DNA of 60,126 nt, counting the filler, from Dirinaria sp. TL-2023a (taxonomy: Eukaryota): assembly GCA_051941275.1 (NCBI GenBank). It is 2 parts of 2 records of this genome, joined end to end, with 100 filler letters (N's around TTAATTAATTAA, not from the genome) between each part and the next. Parts side by side here need not be neighbours in the genome. Positions count along the whole stretch, not along the records: positions 30,133 to 60,126 come from JAVEBF010000106.1; 1 more part is not named here. One strand, given 5' to 3'. The notes beneath the pieces were generated by a model. It saw nothing but the letters and a program-made list of their open reading frames with translations. It was not told where the DNA came from and did not search any database. A program made the translations under genes and the position numbers. Below, one piece after another: positions 11,956 to 51,748 of the stretch (position 1 is its first letter; the number at the start of each line of letters is the position of its first letter).

Positions 11956-14311
11956 ATGGCTTCGAGCAAGGGTGCTGCTCTAACTGTAGCCGGCATTTCA
12001 TACTACGCGCATCCGCAGGCCTTAGTACGTACTACCTGAGCCGCTGTTTTAGACGAGCTGCACTGACAGACTAAGGGGACAGTTTTGCATGGTAATAAGA
12101 GATCGACGGACACTAAGCCTGAACCTACTGTTGTCATCTCCGCTGACAATGTCACCCAAGCAGAGGACATTATCAGTAGGATTTGGAACTTCGCTAAGCA
12201 TGACGATGTCTATTCCGAGGAATTCGGAAAGTCGCTGGTTCTCCAAACGGTTGCTGGCTCAGGCAATTTGCGCATCATACAAGACTTACAGCTGTCCAAG
12301 AAGTTTACTGCAATACACACCTTAGAGGTGGATTCTTCGGAAGATCTTCTTCCATCCGGGCCTTACTTCCTGCAAAATGGTTGCATACATCAAGCTTGGA
12401 GGCTCTACGTAGATGAGCTGAATGCTTTCGTTCTGACGGTTATTCCAAATGATGTCAGATCATGTACAAGGTAATCAGGCCTGTTCTGGAACCTCAATGA
12501 TTGCTGATTACTGATAGTTTCTCGGTCCTAGACGCCATTGCTGCGGATGGCATACATAAGGTGGTGGCAGTGCCAAGTCGTCTGTACGCTACGAGATCCA
12601 AAATTCAGCCTTTGGCTGGCATGCGATTTGCCTTGAAGGACTGTTTTAATCTCGCAGGCGTCAAAACGACGATGTCTAGCAGAGCCTATACGCAGGTCTA
12701 CGGACCAGAGAAAGAAAGCGCTGCATTTGCTAGCAAACTTCTTTCACTCGGTGCCTCAATCGTAGGTAAAACGAAGATGACTAATTTTGCATCTTCAGAC
12801 GAACCCACCGATCAGTGGGTCGACGATATTTGTCCTATCAACCCCCGAGGCGATGGGTATCAGAGCCCATCTGGTAGTTCATCTGGTGCTGCGGCCGCGT
12901 TGGCTGGATACTCGTGGCTTGATCAGTCAATTGGTGCAGACAGTAGGTACGCCCACAATTCTCGCCATTAGACAATTTTTACATTGAGCGCAGCTGGTGG
13001 AAGTATCCGGGCTCCAGCAACTGCGAACGGAGTCTTCTCGCTACGACCGTCATGGAACATCACGTCCATGGATGGAATTGGAGCAATATACCCGTAAGAA
13101 TGTTCTTAAACAGAACCTGGTCACTAGCTAATACGCTATCTCTAGTGATTTTGATGTTGTTGGCATCCTTGCTCGGGACCTACAATCAATACACGACATT
13201 GTGTCTCTGACACACGATGTCGACGACGCAGCGAAGTTCCCATCCAAGATCCTGTATCCGGAAGACTTCTTCCCACACAGTAACAGGAAGCAACAAGCTA
13301 TGGTGGATACTTTCGTTACAGTGCTGGAGAAATTTCTCGGCGTCAAGGCAATTAGAACCAGTCTCGCCGAAAGATGGAGGCAGTGCCCACCTTTGGAGGC
13401 TGGTGATCATTCAATTACGGAGTATCTTGCACAGGTCAGACAACCATTTGCCAGATTCACCTTAGATAAGCTGATGGGAGCAGAGCGCATTCTGGCCGAT
13501 GTGTTATAGCTATTATCATACCTACAAAGATTTTCGGGATAGCTATAGGGATAAATATGGCAGTGAACCATACATAGGGCCTGTTACTCGCTTTAGATGA
13601 TAAAGCTTCCAGCAACTTGCCATTATCGTGCATCCCAGCTTATTCCTTTGCTAGGGGAATAGGCGAAGCTGTGTCTCAAGAGGACTTCTACAAAGGCAGA
13701 GCCGAGATCCAAGTCTTCCGCCAATGGTTTGACGCAAATGTACTTTCCTCGGATCCAGACACCAAATCCGATGCGATCATGATCATGCCCTACGGCATGG
13801 GTGGGCCGAAATACCGGGACGCTCCCAATAGGTAGGTATGGCATTTTGCCTCCAATAATGAAGATACTCTGAAAAAAAGCTGTTGACCCTCTCTCTAGCG
13901 CCCCTTCTACCTCTGGTACAATCAGCGAGAAATTCATGTCACCATCGCTCCAGATTCCACAACTGGTGATTCCCAGTAAAGATTCTTTTCCCTGACGCAG
14001 CTTTCCAGCCTAATAATAATGCCACACAGTCGGGCAGAATCCATACGAATCGAGGATCTCGGGCAGAACGGAGTACCGGCCAATAGGTACTACAATCCTT
14101 GGTGCAAAAGGTGCGTCGGACCGACAAGCGAAAATATATGACGATAAATGCATATGCTGACATTGTGCAAGGGAGCGATCTGATGTTGATCAACCTCGCG
14201 AAGGCAGCCTTGGAATCAGTCGGCTGGCCAACTGAGGTTCAAACAGGCCGTTTGATGTTCAAACTAGGCGACGGCATTCGGAATACGGCAAACGTAGGTA
14301 ATCAAAGATAA
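11956..14311 (+). pseudogene. Amidase-signature family enzyme (GatA-like), multi-exon; probably inactivated by a splice-donor mutation creating TGA at 13598-13600
   Basis: Motifs PLAGMRFALKD, IVGKTKM, NPRGDGYQSPSGSSSGAAAA and D-S/T-GGSIRAPA. The exon ...GPVTRFR ends in TG|ATAAAG, where TG|GTAAAG would splice to G-GGA-ATA (W-G-I). The family call is firm; pseudogene status is less so. Confidence 0.72.
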
Positions 14312-19800: not shown

Positions 19801-20122
19801 TCTGGACGAACTTGGCCCGAGGCATGATTCCGAACGAGAGCAGCGACATAATTGCCACCAAGTAGCCCAAAGTGGAGTAAGTCTGTGCGACGCCATTCGA
19901 CTGGTATATCGCTATCGAGATCGTCGGTGGCAGAGCTCCCTTGAACATCATAAGGAGCATCCCTACATTTAATCCCGATGATTGCCATATCCGCTTCAAG
20001 ATTGGTAGCTTTGTGTGAGTTTCGGATGTCATTTCGCTCCGCCCATCGGACGCTTTGTGTGAAGAGCTCTCATGGCTCGGGGTTCTGGCCGGTTGCCCTT
20101 GTCGCGAATGGAACTCGGACAT
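16808..20122 (-). CDS. Multi-pass membrane protein, ArAE/FUSC-like (aromatic acid exporter-related) family, 4 exons
   Basis: Long first exon with two hydrophobic blocks (MFKGALPPTI...; DPEHLPPKNAWQ...SAFGFRVACATLSIGI...QRLVWAM). Later exons contain LAPYRLA, EPSFGGKFP, EPGYAAFAV and LVGEVDFS. Stop at 16808-16810. Confidence 0.85.
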
Positions 20123-20770
20123 GATCGTAATATATTTCTACCTCAAGCAGTGAAGCCAGCGTTGACGATGCAAAGTCTCATAGACTTAATGTATCCACGG
20201 AATCAATCATAGACCCATGGTGACCAATTGTTGAAAGTGGGGGAATATCTATCCATCTTGGCCACCGTCATGCCCACGAGAAGACATTATTTGAGTAATA
20301 GGTACCCCTCGTACCTAGGTAAGTACCGTATTTATCTTCTGCCAACATGGAATCGAATGAGTGGTCAACCTCTCCGGAGTATGACTAAGATCCATACGGC
20401 ATAAAGTAAGGTACGCAGATGGTCAGCCCAAAGGGCCGGAATATACCCGAGATGCCAAGGCGGCGCTCGGCGGCCCGAAGAAGTACAGCGGGATTCCCTC
20501 GATTCCTTCACACGTTTTCCCTGGGGTACCTCGGACTACTGCAAAGTACCACCAAATACGCAGTATCGCGAAAAACAAGTCCACATGAGATTTTACTGAT
20601 TGGGAATTTAAAAAGTTTGTAGCATTACTGTTCGCTTCAGAAACCTAACTCATGAGCCGTGATGGGTTGTCAAGCCTTGATTGAACTACGCCTCGCTGAT
20701 AATGAATCGAGCATTGGAGTCGAATGAAACCATTCGAGTTGCACACAGCATTCAACTCCTACCACTGTGA

Positions 20771-22346: not shown

Positions 22347-25300
22347 ATGACAGAGACAAAGATGCAGCTAGTGGACTGTACGTGAGAACACTCAGACATC
22401 CTGAGCTATTGATAAATACAGCCGCGCACACATGGGTGAGAGTACTGACTTACCCTGATACGCTCTAGGGCTCGACGACCTATGCGTACGGTTCATCATC
22501 AATCTCCCTCAAGAAGAATTGCAGTCAGTGGAACGGATCTGTTTTCAGGTAGAAGAAGCACAATGGTTCTACGAAGACTTCATCCGTCCGCTGGATCCCG
22601 ATCTCCCTTCACTCAACCTCCGAAACTTTTGCCTTCGCATTTTCCAACACTGTCCTTTACTGTCCCAATTCTCATCGTATCACCATTCAACAGCATTTTC
22701 GGAGTTCCTGGCATATAAGACAAGGGTACCGGTCAGAGGCGCTATCATGCTCAACAACGACTTGGATGCTGTGATTCTGGTCAAAGGCTGGAAGAAAGGT
22801 GCCAATTGGAGTTTTCCGAGGGGCAAAATAAACAAGGCTGAGCCAGACTTGGATTGTGCTATCAGGGAGGTCTACGAAGAGACAGGTTTTGATCTTCGTG
22901 AAGCTGGCCTAGTCGCTGAAGAGGAGAATATGAAATATATCGAAATCACCATGAGGGAGCAACACATGCGCCTTTATGTCTTTCGAGACGTGCCTATGAA
23001 TACACAATTTGAGCCAAAAACAAGGAAAGAGATTAGCAAGATCCAGTGGTATAAGCTTTCTGAGTTGCCAACCCTCAAGAAAGGGAAGAATCAGCATGAA
23101 GGCAAAGGCGAGGATTTGGCGAATAATGCGAACAAGTTCTACATGGTTGCGCCTTTCTTGGTACCCTTGAAGAAGTGGATATCCCAACAGAGAAAGCTCG
23201 ACAGGCATAGGAACTCTGGACAGCCAGAGAGCATGATTCCCTCGGCCCACGAGATCCTGGACGAGGGATCCAACGACCATGATACGGCTGGAAGAAGTGA
23301 TATGGAAAGACTTCTTGCGGGCTTGAGACAATCTGGTCAGGCACAACGTGCAAGCGATCTACCTGAGTTGTCAGTACCCGTGCCGACGATATCGGAGACC
23401 ACAGCCCCAGAGAATGTTCGCTTGCAGCCAACATCAGATATCTTGGGTGTGCGATCTGCGGCTCATCGACTTGACGCACCTAAGTCTTCTGATGTTGATC
23501 GACAAAAGTCCAATGCCCTTCTTGCGTTACTAAAGGGAAATGGTGCGGACAGAGCTCCGCCTCAGACACCCGCGGAACAGATTATCGTGAATCCTCAAAT
23601 GCCCCCTTCGCCAAAACGTCAGCCAGCAGACTCAGAACAACGTCAAGGCTCCTCAAATGCGTCCCCCTATCTAAATCCAACCCAGGATGCTACCCGCTTA
23701 CTGCAACCCAAGGTTGCTAGCGTCGCTAATGCAGCCTTGCAGCCGCAAGTAATACATCAACCGCTGAGAGCGCTGCAGAACCAGGGCCGTAATCCATTGG
23801 ATATAGGTGTGCTCAAAGCTCAACAAGCTGCCCGTTTTCAGGCCATGGATGGTCAAATCGCCAGCCCAACTCGTATTGGCCCTGCTCCCTATCAGCGTAC
23901 AGGTGACCCGTCCTTCACGCAAACTTCGCAGCCGACCGGGTTCCCATCATCGATTCCTCCAGCGAGCAAGCTTCCACCGCCCAAACTTAACCCACACTCT
24001 TCTGCGCTCTTGACTCTTTTCAAAGCCGGCGCAAACGCTCCCTCTGAAATGTCGATAGCTCGACCGATAGCGCCGCGGCCGGAGGTTGCCGCAGTTGAAG
24101 GGAAACCTAGCTTCGTAGATGGAAACAGGCAGATCACAACGAAAGGAAATGGCGCCTATAGAGCCGACCAACCGTTGCAGCCGACGCCTGCGGACGTTGT
24201 GTCTGAAATGTCTGGGGTGGAGAGCGGGAATGAACCAAATTCTCATCATGGCATCACTAAGCCAACCTCTTCCTCCTTAGAGGCCACAGTCTCGAGTCCA
24301 GACAATCCTTATGCGAATGATCCTAAGGTACAAGCAGCGATGGTTGCTCTACACTTAGTGCCACCTGCAACTGGGGAAAAGCCCAGTGCGCCTATCAAGC
24401 CCCAAAATGAGCACCAAGACGCGCTTCTCGGTCTGTTCCGAGCGCCGCCAGTCAAACCGGTCGAATCCAAGGAAACAACAAAGGCCTCACTTGACCTTCC
24501 GCACACTTCCTTCGAACTATCTGCCTTACCGAGCCCAGGCCATTCGAGAGAGCCATCGCGAGACAACGAAAGCGCACGCAATCAAACCGCGGGGCCTTCA
24601 ACTCGACATCTGACCGGCCATCACAAGCAAACGAGAGCAGTCCTTGCACCTCGAAAGCCAACCGTATCTGCAACGGTAGACGGTCCACTCAACGTTCCGC
24701 AGTTCGACAAGCTACTCACAAAACCGAAAGCAGACTCTTCGAAAGTAAACAACCGCTCTAATAAAGAGACTGTTAAAATTCTCCAGAGACCCCTTCAGTC
24801 TGGGTCAATTATGGCCGCAAGTGATCCTAATGGTCTGGTAGTTAGTGAAGAATCGACACTCGCCCCCCCAAATACGATGGTATCTACCCCAAATTTACCT
24901 GCTCAAAGCGTGCCTCCTGAAAATCCACTGTTCACACCCGTCAAATCTAATCCGACACCTCAAGGCCAACCAGAAATGCTCCGCCGCCCACGTCCGCCTA
25001 TCCCAAAACCCTCTCAGAATGACACGATTCTCTCGCCGATCGATCCCCTTCCGTCACCGAGACACATGGTGCCCGTTGATCGCCGTGCCAATCAAACACA
25101 GGAGCATAAGACGTCTTTACTTGCACTTTTCAGCCGGCCTTCGCAATCGCCCGCTGAGACGCCAACACGAGCCGGCTCAGCATTAGTAAGTCCGCTAGTT
25201 ATGACTGCGCAGCGAGATGGAGGTTTTGGTGGGAATGACATGGAGGGAGTTGGTAGTCTAGCCTCTCTAGTGAGTGGCGGTGAGAAGGATGTGAATGCGC

Positions 25301-25398
25301 AAATGAGTAGTGGGCGCCAATCCTCGCGGACGACCCTAACGGACCGGACCTTTTTGTTGGGTTATTTGGATTCTGTAGCGAGAGGGGAGAAGAAGTGA
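22347..25398 (+). CDS. DCP2: mRNA decapping enzyme catalytic subunit Dcp2
   Basis: Short exon 1 (MTETKMQLVDW) and one intron. BoxA LDDLCVRFIINLP...ERICFQVEEAQWFYEDF, Nudix box WSFPRGKINKAEPDLDCAIREVYEETG, and a long disordered C-terminus. Confidence 0.96.
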
Positions 25399-25837
25399 AT
25401 GCAGTCTAGCAGTGAGAACGCAGGCATACCTGCGTCTCCTCTTCATTTACTGCTATTGTGAATAGTTTTGGCTGTATTCTGGAGTGGACGAATCTAAGAT
25501 GTCCACATCAGATCCTCGAAGCACTACCTATTGATTTCTCAGCAAGCTTTCGCCCCACGCAAAACGACTATGAATGCCCATTGAGAACCGAACCATTCCT
25601 TAGTAAGCACTATAGGATTAAGGATCAGACGAGTCATTGCTGCTAATAGGTTATGCCATAAGGATGTTATATGTTATAGTAGAATGTTCAATATAGTGTA
25701 GAGCGTACCTTAGGTATCGGCAAATCACCATATCCACTACCGAAGGTCACGTGGTTTCGCTGCCGTGAGCCGCTCAAAGCGCGTCGTTCTACCACTCACT
25801 CTAAGCAACTTCGCAAAATTTCATCACACAGCCAGCA

Positions 25838-28800
25838 ATGAGCTCTGCAGAGGTCGGCGAGAGACCCAGGAAGAAGAGGCGTTTCTTTGCGGAGGACCCG
25901 CCGGAGGAAGAAGCTCTTGGGACTTTGCCTCCCTTGGCCACCGACGCGTACCCGTATCGATTGCCCAAGCCAGATGGGAATACCCCGTCGACGAGAGATG
26001 TCGCAGAAGGAGAAGAGCGCAATGATACCAGTGGAGTGAACCACGGTACTGACTCGACTTCAAGCGATCATGATGGCTTCGATAAGCAGCTCTTTGCAAG
26101 CTTCGTTGGTCAAGATGTGTCAGACGACATTATACAGAGACTGCGGGAGGCTGCTGGAGGCAATATGGAGCGAGCTATCAATATGTTCTTAGATGGGTCT
26201 TGGAAAACACGAATAGTGGCTAAATCGCCGCTCCCGGCCGAGACTCACAATCGCATCACCGACGCCTTCAAAGTCGTACCATCAACTGGAGAGCGGTCCG
26301 AGCCAGTTCAAAACAAGGCCGCAACACCATCTCCGCGCCAAGCCACCGAAATCCTTGAATCCATGCCGCAGTGTCGATACCTGGGAGCATTTGGCGTTGG
26401 TGCATGGGCAACTCGCAGTGGGCCAAATCTACTTAAGCATGGTGAAGCCGTGAAGATAGAACGAACAAAGATTAGGCCGACTACCAAACTGGGCAGAGGC
26501 GGAAAACAGGTTCAGACGACTGCTGCGAAGATGAGAACAGATATAATCGTACGTTTTACCAATGCGAAAGGGGAAGAAGTCGGCCGATTACCCAAAGAGA
26601 CTTCTGCTTGGGTATCGCCTCTTATAGATCAGAAGGTTTGTCGATTTGATGGTATATGTGTCTTCGCGCCCGATAGAATTCGGGTCAATGATACAGTGTA
26701 TTTGCAGCTTCGATGCTCACTGCTGAGACAAGCCTTCGAAGCTGGAAGCTTTGTTAAGCCAGAAAACAACAATCGTACGACTGGTATTTTCGAGGAGAAA
26801 GAGACTTCGGAGGAAATGGAGCTGCGGTTGAGGCAAATTTCACTGGTCAAGTTGTTCGATGAGATTAATTTAGAGCCGATAACGGTAAACGACACTACTG
26901 CGAAGCACAAGCGTAAAGGTATACTACAAGCAGCAGAGATTGCAGAAAAATACGAGACGGATAAGGAAACCGAATCAAAGACAACACTGGACGGAACATC
27001 ATCGCCACCTTCTGAAGAGGAAGCAGAAGAGGGAAAGGAACTGGAACAAGATCAGCTGGACAGTCTGTATAAGAAGGCACAGTCATTCGACTTCGACACG
27101 CCTTGTATGGACCCTTCGGAAACTTTCATCATGGATCTCCGCAAATATCAAATGCAAGCGTTGCATTGGATGGTCAGCAAGGAGAAGGACGAAAGATCAG
27201 AAAAGCCTGAGCGTTCAATGCACCCTTTGTGGGAAGAGTATATATGGCCAACCGAGGACATGGATGATAAGCAACTTCCAACAGTCACTGGGCAGGAGAG
27301 TTTCTATGTCAATCCGTACTCCGGCGAGCTTTCGCTTGATTTCCCGGCGCAGGAACAGCACTGTTTAGGCGGCATTCTTGCAGACGGTTAGTCCCTTGAC
27401 TCACTCTTAGAGAACGCAGAGAGCTAATTTGACGTTACCAGAGATGGGTCTCGGCAAGACTATTGAGATGCTAAGCTTGATGCACACACACAGGTCTGAG
27501 CTGGCTTTGCAAGCAGCAGAAAATGCTCCGACCTCTGTCAACACTCTTCCGAGACTGCCAAAGAACGCGTCCTCGGTTGAGGCTGCACCATGCACAACCT
27601 TGGTTGTGGCCCCTATGTCATTGTTAGCGCAATGGGAGAGCGAGGCGATCAAAGCGTCCGAGCCAGGATCACTAAAGACCTTGGTTTACTATGGCACTGA
27701 GAAGGTTGCTAGTTTGCGAAATCTTTGCTGCGAGGCGAACGCCTCATCGGCGCCTAATCTAATAATTACTAGCTACGGGATTGTGCTCTCTGAGTTCAAT
27801 CAAGTTGTGAGCCGTGGAGGCGATCGCGGCTCTCATGGCGGTCTTTTCTCGCTCGAGTACTTCCGAGTTATTCTCGATGAAGCACACTTGATAAAGAACA
27901 GGCAGTCTAAGACAGCAAAAGCCTGCTACGAAATCAATGCCCAGCATCGTTGGGTGCTTACAGGTACGCCGCTAACGTACTCAACTGCTGCTTGCCGGTA
28001 AGAACTCACTGACATGCGCCAGGTACGCCAATCGTAAATCGCCTTGAGGATCTTTTCAGCCTTGTCCGCTTCCTGCGTGTGGAACCATGGTCGAACTTTT
28101 CGTTCTGGAAAACTTTCATCACTGTGCCTTTTGAATCGAAAGATTTCATCCGCGCGCTCGACGTCGTGCAGACGGTGCTCGAGCCTCTTGTGCTTCGGCG
28201 CACCAAGGACATGAAGACGCCAGACGGAACTGCACTCGTTCCTTTACCGCCAAGGACGATTCAGGTGGAAGAGCTTCAACTCTCAAAGCAAGAGCGCGAA
28301 GTTTATGACTACATCTTCACCCGTGCCAAGCGGACCTTCAACGCTACGATGGAAGCCGGAACGCTCTTGAAATCTTACACTACTATCTTCGCCCAGATCC
28401 TTCGCCTACGACAATCCTGCTGCCATCCTACTTTGACGTGCAACAAAGCCATCGCTGCAGAAGAAGAAGACGCTGCTGCTGCTGCAGACGTTGCTAACGG
28501 CTTGGCAGACGACATGGACCTCCAGGAACTGATAGAACGTTTCACGACCGACTCGAGCGAGCAAGACATAGCTAATAAGTACGGCGCTCATGTGTTGCAG
28601 CAGATTCAAGCAGAGACCAATAACGAATGTCCAATCTGTTCTGAAGAGCCTATGGTCGAACCCGCCGTGACTGGCTGCTGGCATAGCGCTTGCAAAAACT
28701 GCCTCCTTGACTATATCGAACATCAGAAGGACAAGCACACTCTTCCCTTGTGTTTCAATTGCAGAGAGCCGATCAACCAGCGCGATATCTTCGAGATTGT

Positions 28801-29469
28801 CCGCCACACCGATGATGACCATGACGAGCTATATTCTGATACGCTACCAAACAGCAGCTCAACGCCCCGGTTTTCACTTTCGCGCATCGGCAACGCCTCT
28901 TCCGCTAAGATTGCTGCTCTAACCACGCATCTGAAAGCTCTCCGCCACGATCACCCAACCGTCAAATCTGTGGTCTTCTCCCAATTTACTTCTTTCCTTG
29001 ATCTGATAGCCCCTGCCCTCACCCGTGCCTCGATCCCGACTCTCCGCTTTGACGGTGCCATGACCCAAAAGGCGCGTGCGGCTACCATCAACGAGTTCAC
29101 GAACCATAAAAAGGGCGTGGTATTACTGCTAAGTTTGAGAGCAGGGGGCGTGGGTTTGAACCTGACGGCTGCGAAAAGGGTCTTCATGATGGACCCCTGG
29201 TGGAGCTTTGCTGTTGAGGCGCAGGCAATCGATCGCGTGCATAGGATGGGGCAAGAGGAGGAGGTAAAGGTTGTAAGATTCATTGTGGAAGGGAGCATTG
29301 AAGGTAGGATGTTGAAAATTCAAGAGCGGAAGAAATTTATGTAAGTGTACTCTGTTTATGGAAGGTAGAGCATGCTGATACATAGCGTAGTGCGACTTCA
29401 CTCGGCATGATGAGCGAAGAAGAGAAGAAGATGCAGAGGATCGAGGATATCAAGGAGTTATTGAGCTGA
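25838..29469 (+). CDS. RAD5: DNA repair helicase / RING E3 ligase Rad5, 4 exons
   Basis: HIRAN region (IIVRFTN..GEEVGRLP); SNF2 motifs GGILADEMGLGKT, VILDEAH, LTGTPIVN, VFSQFT, SLRAGGVGLNLT and QAIDRVHRMGQ; RING CPIC...CWHSAC..C...CFNC. Confidence 0.96.
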
Positions 29470-30132: not shown

Positions 30133-30231
30133 CCTTGACTTGGTTTAGTTAGTCTTTTGGCGCTGCCGGGACTTTTACCATTGGGAAACCTATCTAACCA
30201 AGGTTGGGTCTTTGACATATTTGACATTTAC

Positions 30232-36066: not shown

Positions 36067-38205
36067 CTACCAAAGCTTCACATAGCTCAAGAATCGTCGC
36101 CAGCCGGGCTGTCGGTAATACTCATCCAATTGCTGGATATCTTCCGTGGTGAGCTTTCTCCGGCCCGTCAAACAATCAGCCGTCTCTGGGTTGCGCCAGG
36201 GGGTCCGGAATACGAGCTTGTAAGCAATGGTTAACGAGACGATTAAGATGATACCGATGGTGTACTGGAAAAAGTTTGACGCCGTGGTGCCGGACTTGCC
36301 CTATTCGTGTCCCTACGTCAGTTGATAAAACAAAGGAGATAATTGTTCAGCATTGGTCAAGACCGAGGAACCCGTAGTGAGCCGCAATAAGAGGTATGTG
36401 GTTCATAAGCATTCGGGACTCACCGGAGGCTTGGCGCCCACGTAGATGCAGGAAACCAAGAGAAGCGTGGATATAGTCATGAGCCATGCAGGCGCAAGAG
36501 GCCAATAACTAGACTTCCAAGCATACAGATTCGAAAACAGCTTGTCGTTTTGCGCCGCAAGAACCTTGTGGAAACGCCAAGAAGTGAACGCAACGATCAT
36601 CCAGTTGACAAAGAACGAGGCACTCGTAATCGAGACGAACCACGACAGTGCAGTCGTGCCACCGGCTGAAGCGCAGTGTCAGTGCTACCAAACTCCACAG
36701 GGTTTTGAGGCTGGCGAGAAGATATTGGGCTACTCACCAGACAAATTGATATATGTCAGAACAATCGCCGTGAAGCAAGTTACAAGCAGTGACCGTACCG
36801 GCCGTCCTCTACGATCGACCTGCGCGACCCATTGCGGAACAAGCTTTTGGTTGCCCATGGTCCTCAGAATCCTGGAAGCCAGATAGATCGATTCCGCGGA
36901 AATTGCGAGAATACCGCACATGATGCCGGCATTCAAGATGCTGGATACGTAGGGAATGCTGACCGACTGGATGGATAAGACGAAAGGGGAAGCCGTTACT
37001 CCGGAGCCGCCTAGTAATTGGTCGTTGTTCGAAGGGATGAGTACGGTAATGAAAATGACGCATGTCATGTAAACAAAGATCACTCGATAAGGAACGAGTT
37101 TGGTGGCATGGCCCATCGAAAAACGAGGGTTCTGAGCTTCTCCGCCCATGATTCCGATGAAGATCTGGTCGCCGACTGCCCAAGTCGCGAGTAGGGCTGA
37201 GTTCGCAAAGCCCTTGGAAAGGTCAGCTGCAGGTCGTCGAGCGCAAGTCGGGGCATATCTACGTACTGAAAATCCATTTTTAAAGGCTGGAAAGTCCCTC
37301 CAAGTCGATCCATCATGCACATAGCCCTTTGGCCCTGCGCCGCAAACAATAGCGAGAGAGAGGAGAATGATGAGCATAAAGATGATGATCTTAATCAAGG
37401 AGGTGAAATACTCGAACCACGCAAAAACCGTGTTGGGCATAGTGAACAGAGTACATGTTGTGACCAGAAATATAGTGACTTTTCCCATCGTCAGCATTTC
37501 TTTGACTTCAAGGAACGTCCGCTGGACGAGGAAGTGGCTGCAGGAGTCCAGCCAGACCTCCACCATCGATGCTCAGAACTCGCAAACTTACGAGAAGCAG
37601 CCTTAGGAAAATCTCCATTTGCCCAGAACTGGATGAGAATGTTGAAAAAGGCCGCTTCGGATGCAACTATAGAAGTCCAACCTTGATCAAAGTTAATTAC
37701 AAACCATGGATAGTACGGACGGGCTTCTTACCCAGCCATTCGGCAAAGCCAGCGCCAAATGCCAATGCGGGATCAACCCATCGGTCTGCATAGTCGATAT
37801 AGTTACCAGAGGTTGGAAAGGCAATGGTCATTTCGGAGAGAGACTGCAGAACAGCCCAGACGCATGTGCAGACCAGGAAGTAAGCAATGACCATGTTGCC
37901 TGGACCACCAGACGCTAATGCGGCACCAGTTCCAATAAACAGCCCTGAGCCTATGTTGGAACCAAGTGAGATAATCTGTCATTGACCCTGTCAGTAGGCA
38001 GTCGTACTTGGGAAAAGCGGCCTCATTCATCGCATACGTGGACTTGATGTGGGGTGAAGGAGCGATGGAACTGTCCATTCGTCGTGTCTACCATTTCGAT
38101 CACATCTCCTATGCTAGCACTTCTAATAGCGTTGAGATCGAGCTCCCCTTTCTCGCCATCTTTGGACACGCTGGTGTCGGAACCGGCGAACTGTTTCTCT
38201 GCCAT
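36067..38205 (-). CDS. Amino acid permease (APC superfamily, YAT family), multi-exon
   Basis: FHRSFTPHQVHIISLGSNIGSGLFIGTG...GGPG, LSEMTIAFPTSGNYIDYADRWVDPALAFGAG, GEAQNPR, ASPFV, VDRRGRP. Last exon ends RFLSYVKLW* at 36067. Confidence 0.92.
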
Positions 38206-39083
38206 GATAATGGTGATGATTTCTGAGGCAAGTAAAACTCGTTGATTGATAACGTATGTGAGGCTGGCCGAATAGATCAAAGCATGAGATTGAACTTTGG
38301 CTCAGGGAGCAACGTGGCAGTGGAGCAAGACGAGTAGGGACCACGGCACATGATAAATACGCGCGAGGTCGAGAGACAGTCGGTGCCGGTGATAAGGTAG
38401 TAAGGTATCGAACAGGCCCATGCCGCCATTCAAATCTTGACGAGCCCAGATAGCGGCGAAGATCAATGGCAACCGGAGTCACTGGTTGGTCCATCGCGCG
38501 GATGTTCTCCAAATTCTCGAAGAACAACTTCGGAGATCGGCGTCAAAGATACTAATCCGTGCGGGACTAGTAGTATCCCCCCCCCCTTCTTGGCAATATG
38601 GACAAATCAAAATGTCACGGCTTGCATAGATCATGGGCCAGATCGTGCATAGAATGACCTCAGAAATGCCAATTTTTACTGCAGTAACGATCTGCCGATT
38701 TGACGGTTTTACCGGGACTAGTCAGGGGTCTTCTCGCTTGTTGTTCTATATGTCTTCGACGAGAGATTGTGGAGATAGAGCATATGTAATGCTAGCACTG
38801 ATAAGAAGCTATAGCAGAACGTCCAAAAGCACGGACAAAAAGCGTGACAGACAGAAAGCTTGCCACGAGAGTTCGTACGATTGTCCGTTCAGAGCCTTGT
38901 GACCAGACAGTCACGTGGTGTACAAGTAGTGGCTGTCTTGATTGTGGCCATCGGTTACGCTGAATTAGCAATGATTGCTCACTGGTCCTCGGGTCAAATC
39001 GATGTTCGCCAAAAGACGAGGGAACACAGCGTGCCTTCCGAAGCAAAACCTCGTACTTGCCTTCCCAATGACTTGACTAGTGC

Positions 39084-39324: not shown

Positions 39325-41129
39325 ATGAAACCGTTCACTGGCCTTTACGCGTCTGCGATTCCGCGCAACGTCCATGTTCAGTCGCCAGTTCGCAACTTCA
39401 GAGCACTTGATGTCCCACGGCGTAGAATTGCAACGGGCGGGCACTTTGTAGTGCCAAAACCATTCAATGAGCCGAATGTAAGCATTCGTCTAGCAAAAAT
39501 GAGTACGGATCGCTTATTCGTATCCAGTTTGATTATGTGAAGGATTCACCGGAGCGACTGAAACTGGTCACGGCACTGAAGGATCTGAGGTCAAGATTAC
39601 CTGTGCAGGTTCCAGCCAGGGGTGGAGTTCCCAAGTCAGAGAAACAGGACAATGCACAGACCGTCTCCATGTCAATGCCTTCCGAACACGGCAGCACTTT
39701 CGCTCAGTACGGCGACGCCTCAGAGAGCGACGTTTCAGCCGCCATTGAATCCGCACTGAGCGCCAGGTCAGCATGGCAGGACATGCCCTTTACCGACCGC
39801 GCCGCCATCTTCCTCCGAGCCGCCGAGTTGGTCTCCGGCAAGTATCGCTACGAGCTCATGGCAGCGACGATGCTTGGTCAGGGCAAAAACGCATGGCAGG
39901 CTGAGATCGATGCCGCGGCGGAGCTGGCGGACTTCTTCCGCTTCAACGTCGGTTTCGCCCAAGAGATCTACGATAAGCAGCCTGCCATCAACTCTCCAGG
40001 GCACCACGGTCGAACCGACTGGCGGCCACTGGAAGGGTTTGTGTACGCAGTCTCGCCCTTCAATTTCACGGCGATCGGTGGCAACCTGATATCTGCTCCT
40101 GCACTGATGGGCAACGTGGTCGTGTGGAAACCATCGGCCATGTCCGTCTATCCCAGTTACTTGGTGCATAAGATCCTGCTCGAGGCCGGGCTTCCGCCAG
40201 GCGTTATTCAGCTGGTCAATGGCGATCCCGAGCTTGTCACGAGGAAGGTGTTTGAGCACAGGGAATTCTCGGCTCTCAACTTCATCGGATCCTCCGACGT
40301 ATTTCGATCACTCTTCGGGAAAATAGCCGAAGGCGTTGTCAGCAAAAAGTATCGCGACTTCCCCAGAATGGTGGGTGAGACGTCCGGGAAGAACTTCCAC
40401 TTGGTTCATCCCTCTGCCGATATCGGAAACGCGGCAAGACATACCATTCGCGCTTCCTTCGAGTACTCAGGGCAGAAATGCTCCGCTTGCTCGAGAATAT
40501 ACATCCCACAGAGTCAGGCGACTGCTTTCCTTGAGGCCATGAAGCATGAACTCCGTGCTGTCAAGGTCGGCCCCCCCGAAGACTTTGAGAACTTTCTTGG
40601 ACCGGTCATCAACCGTGCAGCTTTCGATAAGATCACCAAGGCAATCGACTCTGCCAACCAAGACAAACAACTTGAGAGGGTGATTGGGGGCACATATGAC
40701 GGGAGCAAAGGCCATTTCATCGACCCTACCATTTACGTCTCCAAAACACCCAACCACGAGCTATTTGACCGAGAACTCTTTGGGCCCGTACTCGTAGCAC
40801 ATGTTTATGCCGACACCGAGTTCGACAATGTCCTAGAAGTCATCGACAGGCAAGGGGGTAACTTCGCTCTCACGGGAGCGATATTTGCCAACGACCAGAT
40901 CGCCATCCGCAAGGCCGAGAATCGACTTCGCTGGGCCGCCGGCAACTTTTATGTCAATTGCAAGACAACAGGGGCTGTTATCGGGCAGCAATCCTTCGGG
41001 GGTTCTCGGGCAAGCGGCACCAATGATAAAGCTGGTAGCGTCAATTTGTTGATGCGTTTTACGGCACCAAGGACTTTGAAGGAGGAATACAACAAATTGG
41101 ACGATGTCATGTATCCTAGCAATCTTTGA
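39325..41129 (+). CDS. PUT2: Delta-1-pyrroline-5-carboxylate dehydrogenase (ALDH4 / Put2 / PrnC family)
   Basis: Arg/Ser-rich presequence-like exon 1, intron about 39478-39527. Motifs NEP, ATMLGQGKNAWQAEIDAAAE, RPLEGFVYAVSPFNFTAIG, GETSGKNFH, FEYSGQKCSA and QQSFGGSRASGTNDK. May be a paralogue of the housekeeping gene. Confidence 0.95.
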
Positions 41130-42302: not shown

Positions 42303-43222
42303 ATGGAGTGTCCGTGGCAGAAAATTCATATCGCTGTCCTGGGATGCGGTGAAGATCCTGTGCAAATCGACATAGGCAAGGCGCTGATGTTGGCCCAGGT
42401 TTCATGGGAACCGCCATCCTGAAGGGACTTTTGACGAAGACCAAAAACGGTAGTACACCCTCGGTCGAATACACAGCTTGGGTTCGGTCTCGAACATCAT
42501 TAGAGCGACTTCACAACGCGCTGGACGACGATCGAAATCAGGTCAACTGTGTGGGTGGGGGAGATGTCGTGGAGAGTATCAGGCCGGCAGATATCGTTAT
42601 CCTCGGCGTTCCTCCGGGAGAACTCAATGATGTCTTCGGAACTGTAGGATTGGCTGATGCGCTGCGGGGGAAAGTCATCGTTAGCCTCCTAGCAGGTGTT
42701 TCCTACCAACAGTTGGCGACCGTCTTGCAAGCCGACACGAAGGTCGATTCAGATTATCACGTGTTGCGGGTCATCCCAAGCATCGGGGCGAAGATCAACG
42801 ATTCGGTGACGCTGATCGCAGAGACGGTAAATGCAGGTCAGGAGCAACAGAAGGTTGTGACTTGGATGTTTGAGCAATTGGGCCAACTGCACTGGCTCCC
42901 TGAGTCACTCATGGACACGGCAACTGCTGCCGGGGCAGCATGTAATGCGCTGACCATGGTAGCTGTCGACGCCATAGTCGATGCCAGCGTTGCTGAAGGA
43001 ATGCCACGTTGGGCAGCTATGAAGCTGGCTGCCGCCTCCTTGCGCAGCTCCTCAGGGCTACTGCTGACCGGCGGCATGTCACCAGAATCTCTAAAGGAGT
43101 CTATGTCCGTGCCTAAGGGTATAACCATCAATTCGGTGCTGGAGCTTGAGCGGGGACATGCGCGATCGACTATTTCCGACGCTGTCCGGCACGCTATACA
43201 GTACGCTAGAAAGATGGCCTAA
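42303..43222 (+). CDS. Pyrroline-5-carboxylate reductase-like protein (divergent ProC/Pro3 family)
   Basis: Exon 1 MECPWQKIHIAVLGC spliced to GFMGTAIL gives the Rossmann GxGxxG. Also ADIVILGVPP, VSLLAGV, ESLMDTATA, DASVAEGMPR and PESLKESMSVPKGIT. Confidence 0.88.
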
Positions 43223-44089: not shown

Positions 44090-45641
44090 ATGAAGCATCT
44101 CGTTGCTAAACATTCTCTTGCGACCTCAATGCCTGTCACTCCGCCGGCAAGGTGCCCCCAGTATCTGCAATCCCGCTTTTCATTTCATCTCGCACATTCT
44201 CCTACGAGGTGGCATTCTACGTTTGCAAGAGACTCCTCCAATGATGCATCGTTGACAAAAAAGAGATTTGCAGTCTTTCCAGACCGCTCCGAGTTGAGGG
44301 CAGCAGAGCCTCTAGCATTGGCTCGTCTTCCTACGGCAAGCGTCTTTAGAAGCTTGTTACTCGGTGCTTTCTTTTCGTCATCCCTCCTGTTCACTCCCGG
44401 ATTTGCGTTTTTGAAGAAGATCTCCAACTCCCCCTCGCGCATGCTGAACCCGGACAAGAACCCGATTTTGAGAGCTATCGTCAAGCCACTGGTGTATGAT
44501 CAATTTTGCGCTGGGCGAAACCGGTCGGAAATCCAAGAGAAGATTTCGCAAATTAAGTCTCTGGGCTTTTCGGGGGTCATTCTTTGCTACGGTAAGGAGA
44601 TCCAGATTCAGAAGTACTATCAGCCCGAAGTAGATTGGCTCAGCGAGTCGCACCAAGGCTTTGATCAGGGGCTAGATTTATGGAAACAAGGTAACCTGGA
44701 AACGCTGGATATGATCGGTGATGGGGACTACTTAGGTATCAAGTACGATGCTCCAACGTTCTCTCGAAGGGACCTCACTGATCTCTGTGAGCAGATATAC
44801 TGGAGCCGGGAAGTCAATAACAGATGACCTTCTACGCGGCAACGCTCCACCCAGGGCCTTCGTGGATGCTATGGACGCCATCTTACAGAGAGCGATGGCC
44901 CAGAACTGTAGGATCTGGATCGACGCCGAACAGCAAGTGCTTCAGCATTCCATCGATCGCTGGACGATCGATCTCATGCGCAAGTACAACCGAAGTGGGA
45001 AAGTCGTACTATACAACACTCTCCAGGCCTACCTGAAATCGTCGCGAAAAAAGCTTGAGCAGCAGCTTCAACTCGCTCACGAAGAAGGCTGGACACTGGC
45101 GATCAAGCTTGTTCGGGGAGCCTACATCGAGAACGATGTTCGAGAACGCATACACGACACCAAAGCACAGACGGACGAGTGCTACAACAGCATCGTGCAG
45201 GACCTCCTCAGTGGCAATGTGAAAGGCATTGCGGAGCAAGATTTCCCCAAGATGCAGCTGTTCCTCGCTGGCCACAATCCGATCAGCATCTCGAAGGCAA
45301 GTGATCTGGTACGTGAACTTCAATTGCAGGGCAAGTTGAAAACGCTGCCTGAGTTCGGTCAGCTTCAGGGGATGGCGGATCAGCTTGGCTGCGAATTGTT
45401 GCAACATGGTGAAGACACAGCACGGGTCTTTGCGTCGAAGGGGCTCCCGGTCGCGATCCCGCGAGTGTACAAGTGTTTGACTTGGGGAAGCATACAAGAA
45501 TGCATGCAGTATCTCGTGAGAAGGGCTGTGGAGAACCGTGGCGGCACAGGTGCGATCAAGGATGGTATGCCTGCACTCGCAAGGGAGTTGAGACGAAGAA
45601 CGATCGACGCGTTAATGGGACGGCGCCGAACGTTGGGCTGA
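44090..45641 (+). CDS. PUT1: Proline dehydrogenase family flavoenzyme (Put1/PrnD-like; possible hydroxyproline dehydrogenase)
   Basis: YDQFCAG, GVILCYGKE, IKYTGAG (across an intron at about 44743-44794), IWIDAEQ, NTLQAYLK, KLVRGAY, AGHN, FGQLQGMAD, VYKCLTWG and YLVRRAVEN. The N-terminus resembles a mitochondrial presequence. Confidence 0.93.
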
Positions 45642-46065: not shown

Positions 46066-47088
46066 ATGGTCTCAGAGATCGAATCCAACGACAATGCTTC
46101 TGCGAAGCCACAGAAACACAACTACCCAGTCCCAGAGCCAGGCTGTTACGTCCCCGCCGTCACCTTCTTCGACCCAGAAACAGATCAGCTAGAACTCGCA
46201 TCACAGAAAAAATACTACGCGTACCTCGCCAGCACAGGCCTCAAAGGCCTAGTAATCCTAGGCACCAACGCGGAAACCTTCCTCTTAAATCGAGAAGAGC
46301 GCAAAACGCTGCTAGAAGCCGCCCGGCAGGCCGTGCCAACGGGATATCCCATCATAGCGGGTGTAAGCGGGCACTCGACCTCTCAAGCACTGGAATACAT
46401 CTCGGACGCGTACTCCGCAGGCGCCAACTACGTGCTCCTCCTCCCCTGCGCCTACTTCGGGAAACAAACCACGCCCTCAGTCGTAAAGCGGTTCTACGCC
46501 CAAGTAGCAACCCAATCCCCCCTCCCAATCATAATCTACAACTTCCCGGCCGTGTGCAACGGGCTCGATCTCGACTCGGGGATAATCACGGAACTGGCGA
46601 CGCAGCATCCGAACATCGTCGGCGTGAAACTCACCTGCGGGTCCGTGGCCAAGGTCGCGCGGCTGGCGGCCGTGTTTTCGCCCGCGCGCTTCGCTGTCTT
46701 CGGCGGCCAGGCCGATTTCTTGCTCGGCGCCCTCGCGGTCGGTGGGGGCGGCTGCATCGCTGCGTTCGCTAATGTGTTCCCTAATGCCGTGGCGAGAGTG
46801 TTTGAGCTCTGGAGTGAAGGTAGACAGCAAGAGGCGCTTGCGCTGCAGAGGGTTCTTTCCTTGGCGGAAGCGCCGACTAAGGCTGGCATTGCGAGTACTA
46901 AGTATGCGGCTGCTTTGATGACGGCGCCGAGGGCGGGAATTGGGGATGCGGCGCGGTTGCTGAGGCCACGCAGGCCGTATGAGGAGCCGGATGAGGGGGC
47001 GAAGGCGAAGATCGAAGAGACTATGGCTCCGTTGAAGGGGCTTGAGGATGGTGGACTTGCGAAAGGAGAGGTTGTGAATGGTCACTAA
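46066..47088 (+). CDS. DapA/NanA-family class I aldolase (4-hydroxy-2-oxoglutarate aldolase / GaaC-like), intronless
   Basis: GCYVPAVTFF, GLVILGTNAE, EER, PIIAGVSGHST, IIIYNFP (catalytic Tyr) and NIVGVKLTCG (Schiff-base Lys). Confidence 0.92.
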   Translation: MVSEIESNDNASAKPQKHNYPVPEPGCYVPAVTFFDPETDQLELASQKKYYAYLASTGLKGLVILGTNAETFLLNREERKTLLEAARQAVPTGYPIIAGVSGHSTSQALEYISDAYSAGANYVLLLPCAYFGKQTTPSVVKRFYAQVATQSPLPIIIYNFPAVCNGLDLDSGIITELATQHPNIVGVKLTCGSVAKVARLAAVFSPARFAVFGGQADFLLGALAVGGGGCIAAFANVFPNAVARVFELWSEGRQQEALALQRVLSLAEAPTKAGIASTKYAAALMTAPRAGIGDAARLLRPRRPYEEPDEGAKAKIEETMAPLKGLEDGGLAKGEVVNGH

Positions 47089-48517: not shown

Positions 48518-49490
48518 TCAGGTGTTCTGGTCGATACTTGCAGTGCGTGCTCGGTCGAAGTCGTTCATCATATTTGCTCTCATTTTATGGTTGACCGTAG
48601 CCCCTAACCCGAACGCCGGAAGGACCCTGCACATCCTCGCAAGACTTGTGGCTGGCCAGTCCAGCCGCACTTTCCTCAGACGGTCCCTGGCCGGTGTAGG
48701 GCTGTTTCGGTTGTACAAATCCAAGCCAAGCAAATGTAGCGGCGTATTCAGAATCTGGATCAGGGCAGGAGTGGCAAACTGGGCCACCGAACGGCGGCTG
48801 AAATGATCTTCCACGGACTGTGGGAGCATTGACGCCACTTTTGGTGGCAGGTTAAACGACGCGAAAATGGTGAGCGAGTCGCGTAGCGCTAGCAATGCGT
48901 AGCTGGCTGGCGGGAGAGGGCGAGGGGCGATCGTTCCGAACATTTTGGTGAACTGGCTGTCCTTGTACAAAGCCAGATTCAAATTGACGAAACTGATCGC
49001 GCCGAATTTGGCGAGGCCACTGGTCGTTGTGCTTGCCGGCTGATTCTGCGCAGTGGAGCTCATCGTGTCTATGGCGTTCGCAGTAAGATATGTGCTGCTG
49101 TAGAGTAGCATCATGATAGCCGACGGACGAGCAAAGAGGAAATGGTGTGGGCGGAGAAGCAGACTTTGAAGCGAGCTTTTTACTGAGCCCATGAATGAAG
49201 TGCGACCGGAGACTCTTTCAACGACTGCCCTTTAGCATGAATCAGTAAGATTTTTCCGCCTCATATCCTTTCTCGTGAGTCGTGACGGATTGCTCTCAAT
49301 AGAAAGCATACTTATCTATCACTGTGACAATGGGTGCCACCAGGCCGGCTGCTATGGCTGCGCTGCTGGCATCTATCGTCAATCTAGCTCCAACATCTCC
49401 CAAGTACCAACAGCTATCTCGTTCTTTCCCTCTTGTCACATGGCTCGCATACTCAGGAACTTGTATCGAGTTGCCGGAGTCTGCCGCCAT
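48518..49490 (-). CDS. Uncharacterised fungal membrane protein, 2 exons (possible mitochondrial transporter-like)
   Basis: Exon 1 ...DASSAAIAAGLVAPIVTVIDK splices in frame (GT-AG) to AVVERVSG...YSSTYLTANAID...YKDSQF...RDSLTIFASFNLP...TPLHLLGLDLYNR...ARMCRVLPAFGLG. Several amphipathic/hydrophobic helices. Confidence 0.8.
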
Positions 49491-50245: not shown

Positions 50246-51748
50246 ATGGCCCGTAATGATTCTCCTGTGCTCATTCTTGGTGGCGGCGCTTGGGGCCTAT
50301 CCACCGCTTTACACATGCTCAATGCAGGCTACAATGATATTAGGGTCGTTGAGCGTGCTGAACAAATACCTTCGAGATACTCTGGTGCCTGGGATCTCAA
50401 CAAGATCGTTCGCGCTGAATACGAGGATCCCTTTTACACAGAATTAGCTCTGGTAAGGTCACTGTTGGCAGTTTTGGTGGAATGGCGCCCGAAGAGGTCT
50501 TTACTTCAGCTCTCCTGTTCATGTGTCAGAGAAAAGTCTCCAATTCAGAAGTTTCATGGACCCACCACTGACGGCATGCTTGAGCGAGAATAGGACGCCA
50601 TGGAAGGCTGGAAGACTCCTCTCTTCGGGCCGTATTTTCATCAGACCGGCTACGTGGTCGCTGTAACCGACAGGGCTCCTGAAAAGGCAGTCCATCACCT
50701 AGAGGAAGCTCTTTCCTCGATATCCTCGCATCCCAGGTTCGCTTCTGAAATCAGACGGCTGCACGGCGGCAAAGACTTCAAGGACTATACGTGGCAGTAT
50801 AGCGGGCCCTTGACCGGGTTCAAAGGGTACATCAATCGAATTGCAGGCTATGCGCATTCTGCAGATACGCTTAGGGGTATCTGGGAGCATTGTGCAAGCA
50901 GGGGCGTGAGGTTTATCATGGGGGAGTCAGCTGGCAAGGCTGTCGAGCTTCTCTATGCTGACGCGAAAGTCTTGGCTTCGTCTTCTACCGGCACGGGCCC
51001 TCAGAGAAGCACTGGGGAAGGTCGATGCATTGGTGTCAAGACAGCCGATGGCAAGCGTCACTTGGCGGATTTGACGATTTGCGCTTTGGGCGCCTATGCT
51101 GCCTCACTGATTCCAAGCCTAGGGAATTTTAGTGTGGCGCGATGTTGGTCTGTAGCACACGTGCAGCTGACTCAGGCAGAGACAAATTTCCTCCGTGGCA
51201 TCCCTACAACCAGCGTTCGAGACCTAGGATTCTTCTTTGAGCCAGATCCCAAAACCCAGCTGTTCAAGTTATGTCCACTTGGCGCCGGATTCACCAACAC
51301 CAACAATGATGGCATATCTTTGCCGCCTGGGGATCTCCTCCCACCTCCGCAAGATTACATTCCCCTTGAGGACGAGCAAAAGCTTAGGCAGCTATTGCGC
51401 GAGACGTTTCCGTGGATGGCCGAAAGACCCTTCGTGGAACAGAAGCTCTGTTGGTTCGCAGACACAGCAGACTCGGAATACTGCATCGATTTTGTTCCGA
51501 ACACGAACAACTCGCTTGTCGTGCTTTCTGGCGACTCGGGGCATGGCTTCAAGATGATGCCGAGCTTTGGAAAGTGGGTGGTGGAACTATTGAAAAATAA
51601 CGAGCAAAGGCTGCCGAGATGGCAATGGCGCAATACAGATCTAAGGGGGCAAGACTGGAGCACGTCTGTCAGTTGGAGGATCGGAGAGTCGCGCGAGATC
51701 CGTGACATGATTGATGAAAAGTCGAAAATCATCAAAGCCAGACTGTGA
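50246..51748 (+). CDS. FAD-dependent amine oxidase, sarcosine / L-pipecolate / fructosyl-amino-acid oxidase family, with PTS1
   Basis: VLILGGGAWGLSTA, DLNKIVRAEY, intron 50453-50593, FHQTGY, GFFFEP, KLCWFADT (covalent-FAD Cys region), SGDSGHGFK; C-terminal -ARL. Confidence 0.92.

Follow-up and report, generated by a model that had tools for sequence, protein, structure and literature searches.

Within the proline dehydrogenase (PRODH) family, animal PRODH2 carries a serine at the position that is occupied by Tyr540 in Escherichia coli PutA. This tyrosine packs against C4 of the substrate ring, as described in the part of PMC3718742 that summarises Ostrander et al. (2009). The mammalian 4-hydroxyproline pathway comprises the enzymes HYPDH, ALDH4A1, GOT2, and HOGA1 in the relevant sections of PMC8779045 and PMC12523316, and the bacterial hydroxyproline pathway proceeds via an epimerase, a D-hydroxyproline dehydrogenase, a DHDPS-family deaminase, and an α-ketoglutarate semialdehyde (KGSA) dehydrogenase (PMC5144071). 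Here, we describe a PRODH-like gene and its gene cluster from Dirinaria sp. TL-2023a (GenBank assembly GCA_051941275.1), which are located in a stretch of 60,126 nucleotides, filler included. This whole stretch, referred to as the window, joins parts of two records, and its positions 30,133 to 60,126 are derived from JAVEBF010000106.1. The PRODH-like protein has a cysteine at the Tyr540 position, and we consider it probable (about 0.6), as judged from sequence comparisons, that it is a hydroxyproline dehydrogenase that evolved independently in fungi and acts in a clustered catabolic route of the animal type. The initial annotation of this DNA had already read the cysteine as an independent small-residue substitution giving a fungal hydroxyproline dehydrogenase; this reading gains support from the active-site alignment, from the split of the fungal enzymes into separate clades, and from the clustering with genes for a Δ1-pyrroline-5-carboxylate (P5C) dehydrogenase, a permease, and an aldolase.

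The PRODH-like gene consists of two exons with the following features:

44090..44742, plus strand: exon 1, with the ATG at 44090; its translation shares 55-80% identity with orthologs over their N-terminal halves
44743..44794, plus strand: intron of 52 nt with GT..AG borders, placed by the sequence, the reading frames, and the absence of the insert from ortholog P0013
44795..45638, plus strand, stop codon at 45639-45641: exon 2, which contains the cysteine codon and matches Pfam Pro_dh with 3.8e-48
45474..45476, plus strand: cysteine codon TGT, residue 227 of the exon-2 translation, equivalent to Tyr540 of E. coli PutA by profile alignment

The translation of positions 45462-45540 on the plus strand reads RVYKCLTWGSIQECMQYLVRRAVENR, with the cysteine codon where the initial annotation had placed it. 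Both exons were analysed separately and not as a joined protein. The exon-2 product P0002 has 281 residues and reaches 164.9 bits with Pfam Pro_dh (PF01619; FAD-binding (β/α)8 barrels), for which the cut-off is 27. At the splice junction the protein reads ...DYLGIK/YTGAGK..., and the splice is supported by the fact that ortholog P0013 reads ...GDWLGMKLTGAGE... across this site without any intron-derived insert. In the orthologs P0006, P0007, and P0012, which are 78-88% identical, the public gene models translate the equivalent of this intron and contain about 17 spurious residues (…KYDAPRSLKRTPLISMSRYTGAG…). The basic N-terminus of the PRODH-like protein looks like a mitochondrial presequence. 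The cysteine is conserved in all 11 closest orthologs (P0006-P0016).

A search of the Protein Data Bank (PDB) with the single sequence matched only PutA from Geobacter and ended before the motif. Therefore, 25 homologs from fungi, animals, and plants were combined into a profile (A1), whose search against the PDB resulted in end-to-end alignments with PutA chains. In these alignments, the consensus vyKylpwG is paired with CRIYAPVG of E. coli PutA. The cysteine column falls on a tyrosine with chain index 455 in 1tj2, a construct of residues 86-669 with 584 residues in which index 1 is residue 86, and on index 540 in 4o8a, in which the aligned range is offset by exactly 85 relative to 1tj2. The by-eye alignment of the initial annotation, which had equated the cysteine with PutA Tyr540, is thus borne out by the profile alignment. 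Further substrate-binding residues are in register as well, namely D43 with Asp370, L190 with Leu513, Y239 with Tyr552, and R242/R243 with Arg555/556 (P0002 numbering); the respective 1tj2 chain indices are 285, 428, 467, and 470/471, to which 85 has to be added for PutA numbering. D43, L190, R242, and R243 are invariant in the profile, and Y239 is present in the window protein.

Structural evidence was obtained from the ortholog P0013 in place of the window protein, to which it is 72% identical (alignment A3). Its predicted model has a pLDDT of 86.6 and a pTM of 0.85, places the KVYKC strand at residues 430-437, and continues with a helix bearing both arginines. The top Foldseek matches of this model are PutA PRODH domains (E 3.6e-16), and the predicted fold is a PutA-like PRODH barrel. 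Among the structural matches is 3E2Q with the title 'PutA86-630 Mutant Y540S Complexed with trans-4-hydroxy-L-proline'. Covalent flavinylation via the cysteine was also considered and set aside, because the profile alignment would put this residue at the substrate-side Tyr540 site.

For the distribution of this residue, 266 homologs were aligned to P0002. A residue in the Tyr540 column is present in 238 of them: 118 tyrosine, 100 cysteine (a count that includes nine near-identical rows of Aspergillus section Fumigati, namely seven of A. fumigatus and one each of A. lentulus and A. fumigatiaffinis), seven alanine, six leucine, three asparagine, and one each of phenylalanine, serine, glycine, and valine. 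A FastTree phylogeny was calculated, with the Tyr540 column omitted, from the 214 rows in which 220 or more of the 281 columns are filled; 52 rows that were short or lacked this column were excluded. The residues are distributed over this tree as follows:

Clade of the window protein (FastTree local support 99), 90 rows: 79 C, 8 Y, 1 L, 1 F, 1 A
Canonical fungal clade, 69 rows: 68 Y, 1 C
Third, mixed group, 22 rows: 10 C, 4 L, 3 Y, 2 N, 2 A, 1 G

The same separation was found with IQ-TREE (LG+C20+F+G4) for 64 chosen rows, again with the Tyr540 column removed and with animals, plants, and one oomycete as outgroup. The Cys clade, which includes the window protein, has an SH-aLRT support of 98 (23 rows: 19 C, 4 Y). 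Its sister is the mixed group, and the two together are sister to the canonical clade. A minimum of five changes between Tyr and non-Tyr is required on this tree. At a conservation of at least 70% in each, the Cys and Tyr clades are told apart by no more than six columns, of which the Tyr540 column is the sharpest (0.88 vs 0.99). The remaining five are W41, N74, W99, F156, and G188; of these, W41 lies two residues before the equivalent of Asp370 and G188 two before the equivalent of Leu513.

The tyrosine is kept throughout the PRODH1-type proteins of animals and oomycetes, with 112 of 112 motif-matched sequences among 118 examined, the other six being close relatives of P0125 that lie outside the motif pattern. 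It is also found in all 113 further fungal proteins of the Tyr type; 11 of these had been scored as V or A by the script owing to register slips, and their sequence strings show K-Y. The initial annotation would have had to be abandoned if cysteine were common in ordinary fungal Put1 enzymes, and these counts, together with the 68 of 69 in the canonical clade, show that it is not. The substitution also proved to be independent of animals, as the Cys clade is nested within the fungal PRODHs in both trees. In these phylogenies, the cysteine is foreign to ordinary fungal proline dehydrogenase and marks a separate paralog clade of the Pezizomycotina. The window protein itself departs from canonical PRODHs both in having cysteine for tyrosine and in its placement outside of the canonical fungal clade. 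It is no ortholog of animal PRODH2 either: the Cys clade stands among the fungal PRODHs, and the animal and plant sequences form the outgroup.

The canonical clade is labelled as such because of the source annotations and the universal tyrosine; PrnD from A. nidulans and Put1 from yeast were not among the best 120 matches in a search with a Tyr-type protein from Microsporum. A search seeded with P0125 returned no named hydroxyproline dehydrogenase but only PRODH1-type proteins, all with tyrosine. P0125, which is encoded on a 1.8-Mb contig, is the only sequence of the homolog set with serine in the Tyr540 column. It was rejected as an anchor for PRODH2, because it forms a long branch with the animal and plant outgroup, outside any PRODH2 group. 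Apart from the serine of P0125, the column occasionally varies beyond the fungi, with valine in P0260 from the green alga [Myrmecia] bisecta and cysteine in the metagenome protein P0261.

Both paralogs co-occur in several fungi, namely in Sporothrix eucalyptigena (P0042 with cysteine and P0068 with tyrosine), Ciborinia camelliae (P0047 and P0081, respectively), and Botrytis deweyae (P0054 and P0096, respectively). The best named relatives of the window PRODH are from lichen fungi of the Teloschistaceae (Teloschistes, Caloplaca, Flavoplaca, Gallowayella) with 65-72% identity, and co-occurrence was assessed in such related lichen fungi in place of the window organism's own genome. In the Teloschistaceae, the Cys-type proteins P0013 and P0016 are found as well as the Tyr-type proteins P0275 (Gallowayella cf. 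fulva) and P0524 (Loekoesia). Proteins of the Tyr type are also present in Usnea, Psora, Bacidia, Heterodermia, and other lichen fungi.

The PRODH paralog is part of a cluster of about 16 kb, which contains the following further genes:

36733..37572, minus strand: amino-acid permease, largest exon; Pfam AA_permease 7.2e-38
39325..41129, plus strand: P5C dehydrogenase of the ALDH4 type; exon 1 at 39325-39477, intron at 39478-39527, exon 2 at 39528-41126 plus stop codon
42303..43222, plus strand: P5C-reductase-like gene; exon 1 at 42303-42348, intron at 42349-42398, exon 2 at 42399-43219 plus stop codon
46066..47088, plus strand: DHDPS-family aldolase, HOGA1-like; Pfam DHDPS 3.6e-38
48518..49231, minus strand: open reading frame (ORF) of an orphan family restricted to Ascomycota; Atlas orphan clusters 0.96
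50247..51748, plus strand: FAD oxidase of the fructosyl-amine/sarcosine-oxidase family; Pfam DAO; fructosyl amine oxidases in the PDB (4wct) 5.6e-40

Further ORFs on the minus strand suggest that the permease gene extends over about 36067-38301. The P5C dehydrogenase matches Pfam Aldedh (6.4e-94) and, in the PDB, yeast Put2 (4oe4, 5.3e-167) and human and mouse ALDH4A1 (about 1e-142). For the P5C-reductase-like product, the Pfam matches are P5CR_dimer (2.6e-21) and F420_oxidored (1.9e-07), and the PDB matches are P5C reductases from 4.5e-19. The FAD oxidase gene has an intron at about 50453-50593 that encloses the in-frame stop codon 50591-50593. No transaminase is encoded in the cluster.

The best match of the aldolase in the PDB is an uncharacterised family member (3qfe, 1.9e-124), and its closest characterised relative there is human HOGA1 (3s5o, 9e-30). 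The following residues correspond to those of the HOGA1 active site:

46627-46629, plus strand: aldolase K188, equivalent to the Schiff-base Lys196 of HOGA1
46537-46539, plus strand: aldolase Y158, equivalent to Tyr168 of HOGA1
46267-46269, plus strand: aldolase N68, equivalent to Asn78 of HOGA1
46633-46635, plus strand: aldolase T190, equivalent to Ser198 of HOGA1, with threonine for serine and the hydroxyl kept

In addition, Thr67 is found at the position of HOGA1 Ser77. According to Riedel et al. (2011, PMC3188589), the binding of 4-hydroxy-2-oxoglutarate (HOG) by HOGA1 involves two unique residues, Asn78 and Ser198; Thr45 and Ala163 are given for E. coli DHDPS at these positions, and the S198T variant of HOGA1 is reported to retain kcat. 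With these HOGA1-type residues, a HOG aldolase activity is predicted for the neighbouring aldolase, which resembles HOGA1 only modestly overall (9e-30).

Conservation of the linkage was deduced from fused gene models in the protein database, found by blastp against the window proteins, and from 80 metagenome loci, which were searched by tblastn and, in the case of six distant Cys-type loci, also with Pfam on ORFs of at least 130 residues. In the window, the P5C dehydrogenase and the HOGA1-like aldolase are both encoded within 6 kb, and this linkage recurs in P0015 and in the metagenome locus L042. P0015 from Flavoplaca is a fusion model of PRODH and aldolase (75% identity in the aldolase). L042, the closest metagenome locus (Cys type, 58% identity), has an aldolase gene (66%) directly downstream and a fragment of a P5C dehydrogenase gene. 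Aldolase linkage was thus found in three of three assessable members of the window's subclade. The P5C-reductase-like partner is linked more widely: it is fused to PRODH in Caloplaca P0014 (56%), it is present at locus L012, and a P5C-reductase-like domain (27-32%) is fused to Cys-clade PRODHs in A. lentulus P0032, A. fumigatiaffinis P0033, and A. fumigatus P0038 as well as in P0099, P0104, P0106 (in which the Tyr540 column is missing), and P0190. The fusion models with this 27-32% identical domain carry the names Aspergillus, Periconia, Ophiobolus, and Talaromyces. In Fonsecaea erecta, P0024 is a fusion model of the oxidase (57%) and a Cys-type PRODH. None of the 15 fungal Tyr-type loci of at least 7 kb has an aldolase, P5C reductase, P5C dehydrogenase, or oxidase gene of the cluster type as neighbour.

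No aldolase, P5C reductase, or P5C dehydrogenase gene was found at the six distant Cys-type loci of 7-21 kb (L001, L004, L006, L027, L033, L036). The check suggested by the initial annotation, whether the substitution co-occurs with a linked aldolase across fungi, thus has a positive outcome only in part: the aldolase is linked in three of three cases in the window's subclade, where it is HOGA1-like and has HOG-binding residues, and in none of the six distant cases, which confines the linkage to this subclade. The Cys clade as a whole does not share the full cluster.

A different arrangement was observed at L021:5784-16097 and L024:5327-15777, where a PRODH paralog with leucine at the Tyr540 position (NVFKLLTWG...) is flanked by a divergently transcribed P5C dehydrogenase gene, whose product is 53-54% identical to the one from the window, and by a gene of the OCD/mu-crystallin family. 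Genes for a fungal transcription factor and for a xylose-isomerase-like TIM-barrel protein are nearby, and in Aspergillus unguis P0098 a Leu-type PRODH is fused to an OCD domain. This locus looks like a second, distinct imino-acid cluster.

The sequence, the Tyr540 alignment, the paralogous relationship, the gene content of the cluster, and the residues of the aldolase were observed directly; from them we infer, for the following route, which substrate is used, in which direction the flux runs, and in which compartments it takes place. The Cys-type PRODH would be a mitochondrial FAD-dependent enzyme of a paralog clade that was born by duplication early in the Pezizomycotina, and the exchange of the C4-facing tyrosine for cysteine would open space for the 4-hydroxyl group of the substrate. 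Hydroxyproline would be imported by the permease, and trans-4-hydroxy-L-proline would be oxidized by the Cys-type PRODH to 3-hydroxy-P5C, which the clustered P5C dehydrogenase may convert into 4-hydroxyglutamate. After transamination by an enzyme presumably encoded outside of the cluster, the HOGA1-like aldolase would cleave HOG into pyruvate and glyoxylate. The reading as a hydroxyproline route follows from the combination of permease, PRODH-type, ALDH4-type, and HOGA-type genes, which together with a general transaminase amount to the mammalian 4-hydroxyproline route. All checks following from the initial annotation that could have contradicted it and that can be run in silico were run, and none contradicted the hydroxyproline reading.

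Other explanations differ in how well they account for these findings. That the cysteine is an assembly or sequencing error, or that the gene is a decaying pseudogene, has virtually no probability. Nothing was found in favour of this, and both exons are open and joined by a canonical 52-nt intron, 11 orthologs of separate assemblies share the motif with hardly any or no change, the cysteine recurs in 79 of the 90 clade members, and the model of ortholog P0013 is confident. The protein could also be a proline dehydrogenase in which the cysteine is tolerated, encoded in a second or lineage-specific proline-utilisation cluster with the aldolase and the oxidase as unrelated neighbours. We regard this as improbable, although it is favoured by the unchanged state of the remaining substrate-binding residues and by several points that also weigh against hydroxyproline as the substrate: eight of the 90 clade members carry tyrosine by reversion, the aldolase is absent at the six distant Cys-type loci, and a permease, a P5C dehydrogenase, and a PRODH also make up an ordinary proline cluster such as the classical prn cluster of Aspergillus. 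Such an enzyme would be hard to reconcile with the presence of a canonical Tyr-type enzyme in related lichen fungi and with the repeated adjacency of aldolase, reductase, and oxidase genes in other genera. Moreover, the aldolase retains the HOG-specific asparagine and a hydroxyl residue, and the clade-wide loss of the tyrosine is not neutral drift, because 68 of 69, 113 of 113, and 112 of 112 proline-type sequences have kept it.

The unexplained roles of the P5C-reductase-like and fructosyl-amine-oxidase-like partners in the proposed route also count against it, and at face value a P5C-reductase-like enzyme would reverse the first step. These partners would belong to the pathway if the substrate were another cyclic or N-substituted amino acid, such as L-pipecolate, 3-hydroxyproline, a cis or D isomer, thioproline, or 4-methylproline. 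This is unlikely as well, even though the P5C-reductase-like gene is the most widely conserved neighbour in the Cys clade and superfluous in a simple hydroxyproline route, the linked oxidase is from a family that acts on secondary amines, and further fungal PRODH paralogs vary at the Tyr540 position (Leu, Asn, Ala, Gly) in different clusters. Among the candidates considered, only 4-hydroxyproline yields a 2-oxo acid that is cleaved by a HOGA-type aldolase, as far as the sections cited above from PMC8779045 and PMC12523316 go. Furthermore, the P5C dehydrogenase is of the ALDH4 type for five-membered rings, and a six-membered ring probably requires more than one enlarged position. Regarding the aldolase, the hydroxyproline route is also weakened by the modest margin by which HOGA1 (9e-30) is preferred to YagE (1.1e-27) and DHDPS (2.3e-26), and by an acidic N-terminus, which appears to be unlike a mitochondrial presequence.

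A broader reading, which is tentative and rather doubtful, is that the PutA Tyr540 position serves as a general specificity switch in filamentous fungi, with at least three PRODH lineages in the Pezizomycotina (Tyr, Cys, and mixed Leu/Asn/Ala/Cys), each with its own cluster. The Cys-type cluster would then be characterised by the P5C-reductase-like gene, the HOGA-like aldolase, and the fructosyl-amine-oxidase-like gene, and the Leu-type cluster by P5C dehydrogenase, the OCD/mu-crystallin gene, and the transcription factor. If this were true, imino-acid catabolic pathways that have not been described would exist, for 4-hydroxyproline and perhaps for 3-hydroxyproline or pipecolate, and the pair of Cys-PRODH and P5C-reductase-like protein would constitute a dedicated redox module for hydroxyproline and 3-hydroxy-P5C, going beyond a catabolic step.

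Regarding the remaining genes of the window, the orphan ORF at 48518-49231 has no Pfam match even at E-values up to 1. A mitochondrial carrier was considered for it and rejected, as the best named Atlas cluster reached only 0.77, which is too weak. A homolog with 32% identity is fused to a Tyr-type PRODH in P0252 (Paramyrothecium foliicola). The ORF possibly belongs to the cluster, and its family may be a recurrent neighbour of PRODH. Upstream of the cluster, the window contains unrelated housekeeping genes for a FUSC/ArAE-type membrane protein (17537-20137, minus strand), a Dcp2-like decapping NUDIX protein (22459-25395, plus strand), and a Rad5-like HIRAN/SNF2/RING helicase in three ORFs (25805-29341, plus strand). 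Fragments at 7358-12968 match an AMP-binding C-terminal domain, a putative cyclase, and an amidase and may be multi-exon genes.

Hydroxyproline is abundant in collagen and in cell-wall glycoproteins of plants and algae, and such materials are substrates of dermatophyte-like, plant-pathogenic, and lichen-forming fungi. A keyword search of the literature, whose coverage is without most subscription journals, revealed no description of a fungal hydroxyproline dehydrogenase, of an animal-type route in fungi, or of such a cluster. The enzyme family and the specificity position are already known from PRODH2; new are the separate origin, the different residue, and the clustered pathway. If the hydroxyproline reading is true, specificity for hydroxyproline would have arisen a second time and independently among the PRODHs, at the same position but with a different residue, and a function would be given to a large family that is now annotated as 'proline dehydrogenase/oxidase'. 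The cluster would end in glyoxylate, which may be a precursor of the oxalate that many such fungi deposit. The fungal enzyme could also be a microbial stand-in for human HYPDH, which is a drug target in primary hyperoxaluria and recalcitrant to expression and structure determination (2026 review, PMC13155685).

In comparison with the mammalian pathway, the window cluster likewise encodes an ALDH4-type dehydrogenase and a HOGA1-like aldolase with the equivalents of Lys196, Tyr168, and Asn78. In contrast to the mammalian system, the fungal genes are physically clustered, a P5C-reductase-like gene, a fructosyl-amine-oxidase-like gene, and an orphan ORF are added, and the transaminase is not part of the cluster. 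PRODH2/HYPDH and the window protein are from the same enzyme family and share a smaller residue in place of the proline-gating tyrosine; the window protein differs in belonging to a clade of fungi only, in not being an ortholog, and in having cysteine instead of serine. With the PRODH domain of E. coli PutA and its variants Y540S and Y540A (PDB 1TIW; 3E2Q), it has in common the fold and the register of the substrate-binding residues, and it naturally has a cysteine where a small residue was introduced into PutA by laboratory mutagenesis. Unlike PutA, the fungal enzyme is monofunctional and eukaryotic, with about 18-20% identity, and its change is natural, clade-wide, and accompanied by five other clade-specific columns. 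The canonical Put1/PrnD type is a sister family within the fungi and is similar in the clustering of permease and P5C dehydrogenase, as in the prn cluster, but it keeps the tyrosine (68 of 69; 113 of 113), and aldolase, reductase, and oxidase neighbours are absent from its 15 loci of at least 7 kb. The bacterial hydroxyproline pathway is also a clustered route with a DHDPS-family enzyme and a DAO-family flavoenzyme (PMC5144071). The window cluster deviates from it in that it has no epimerase, that the first enzyme is of the PRODH type and the dehydrogenase of the ALDH4 type, and that the DHDPS-family member has HOGA residues; because of these features, the chemistry of the fungal cluster would be that of the animal route and not that of the bacterial one.

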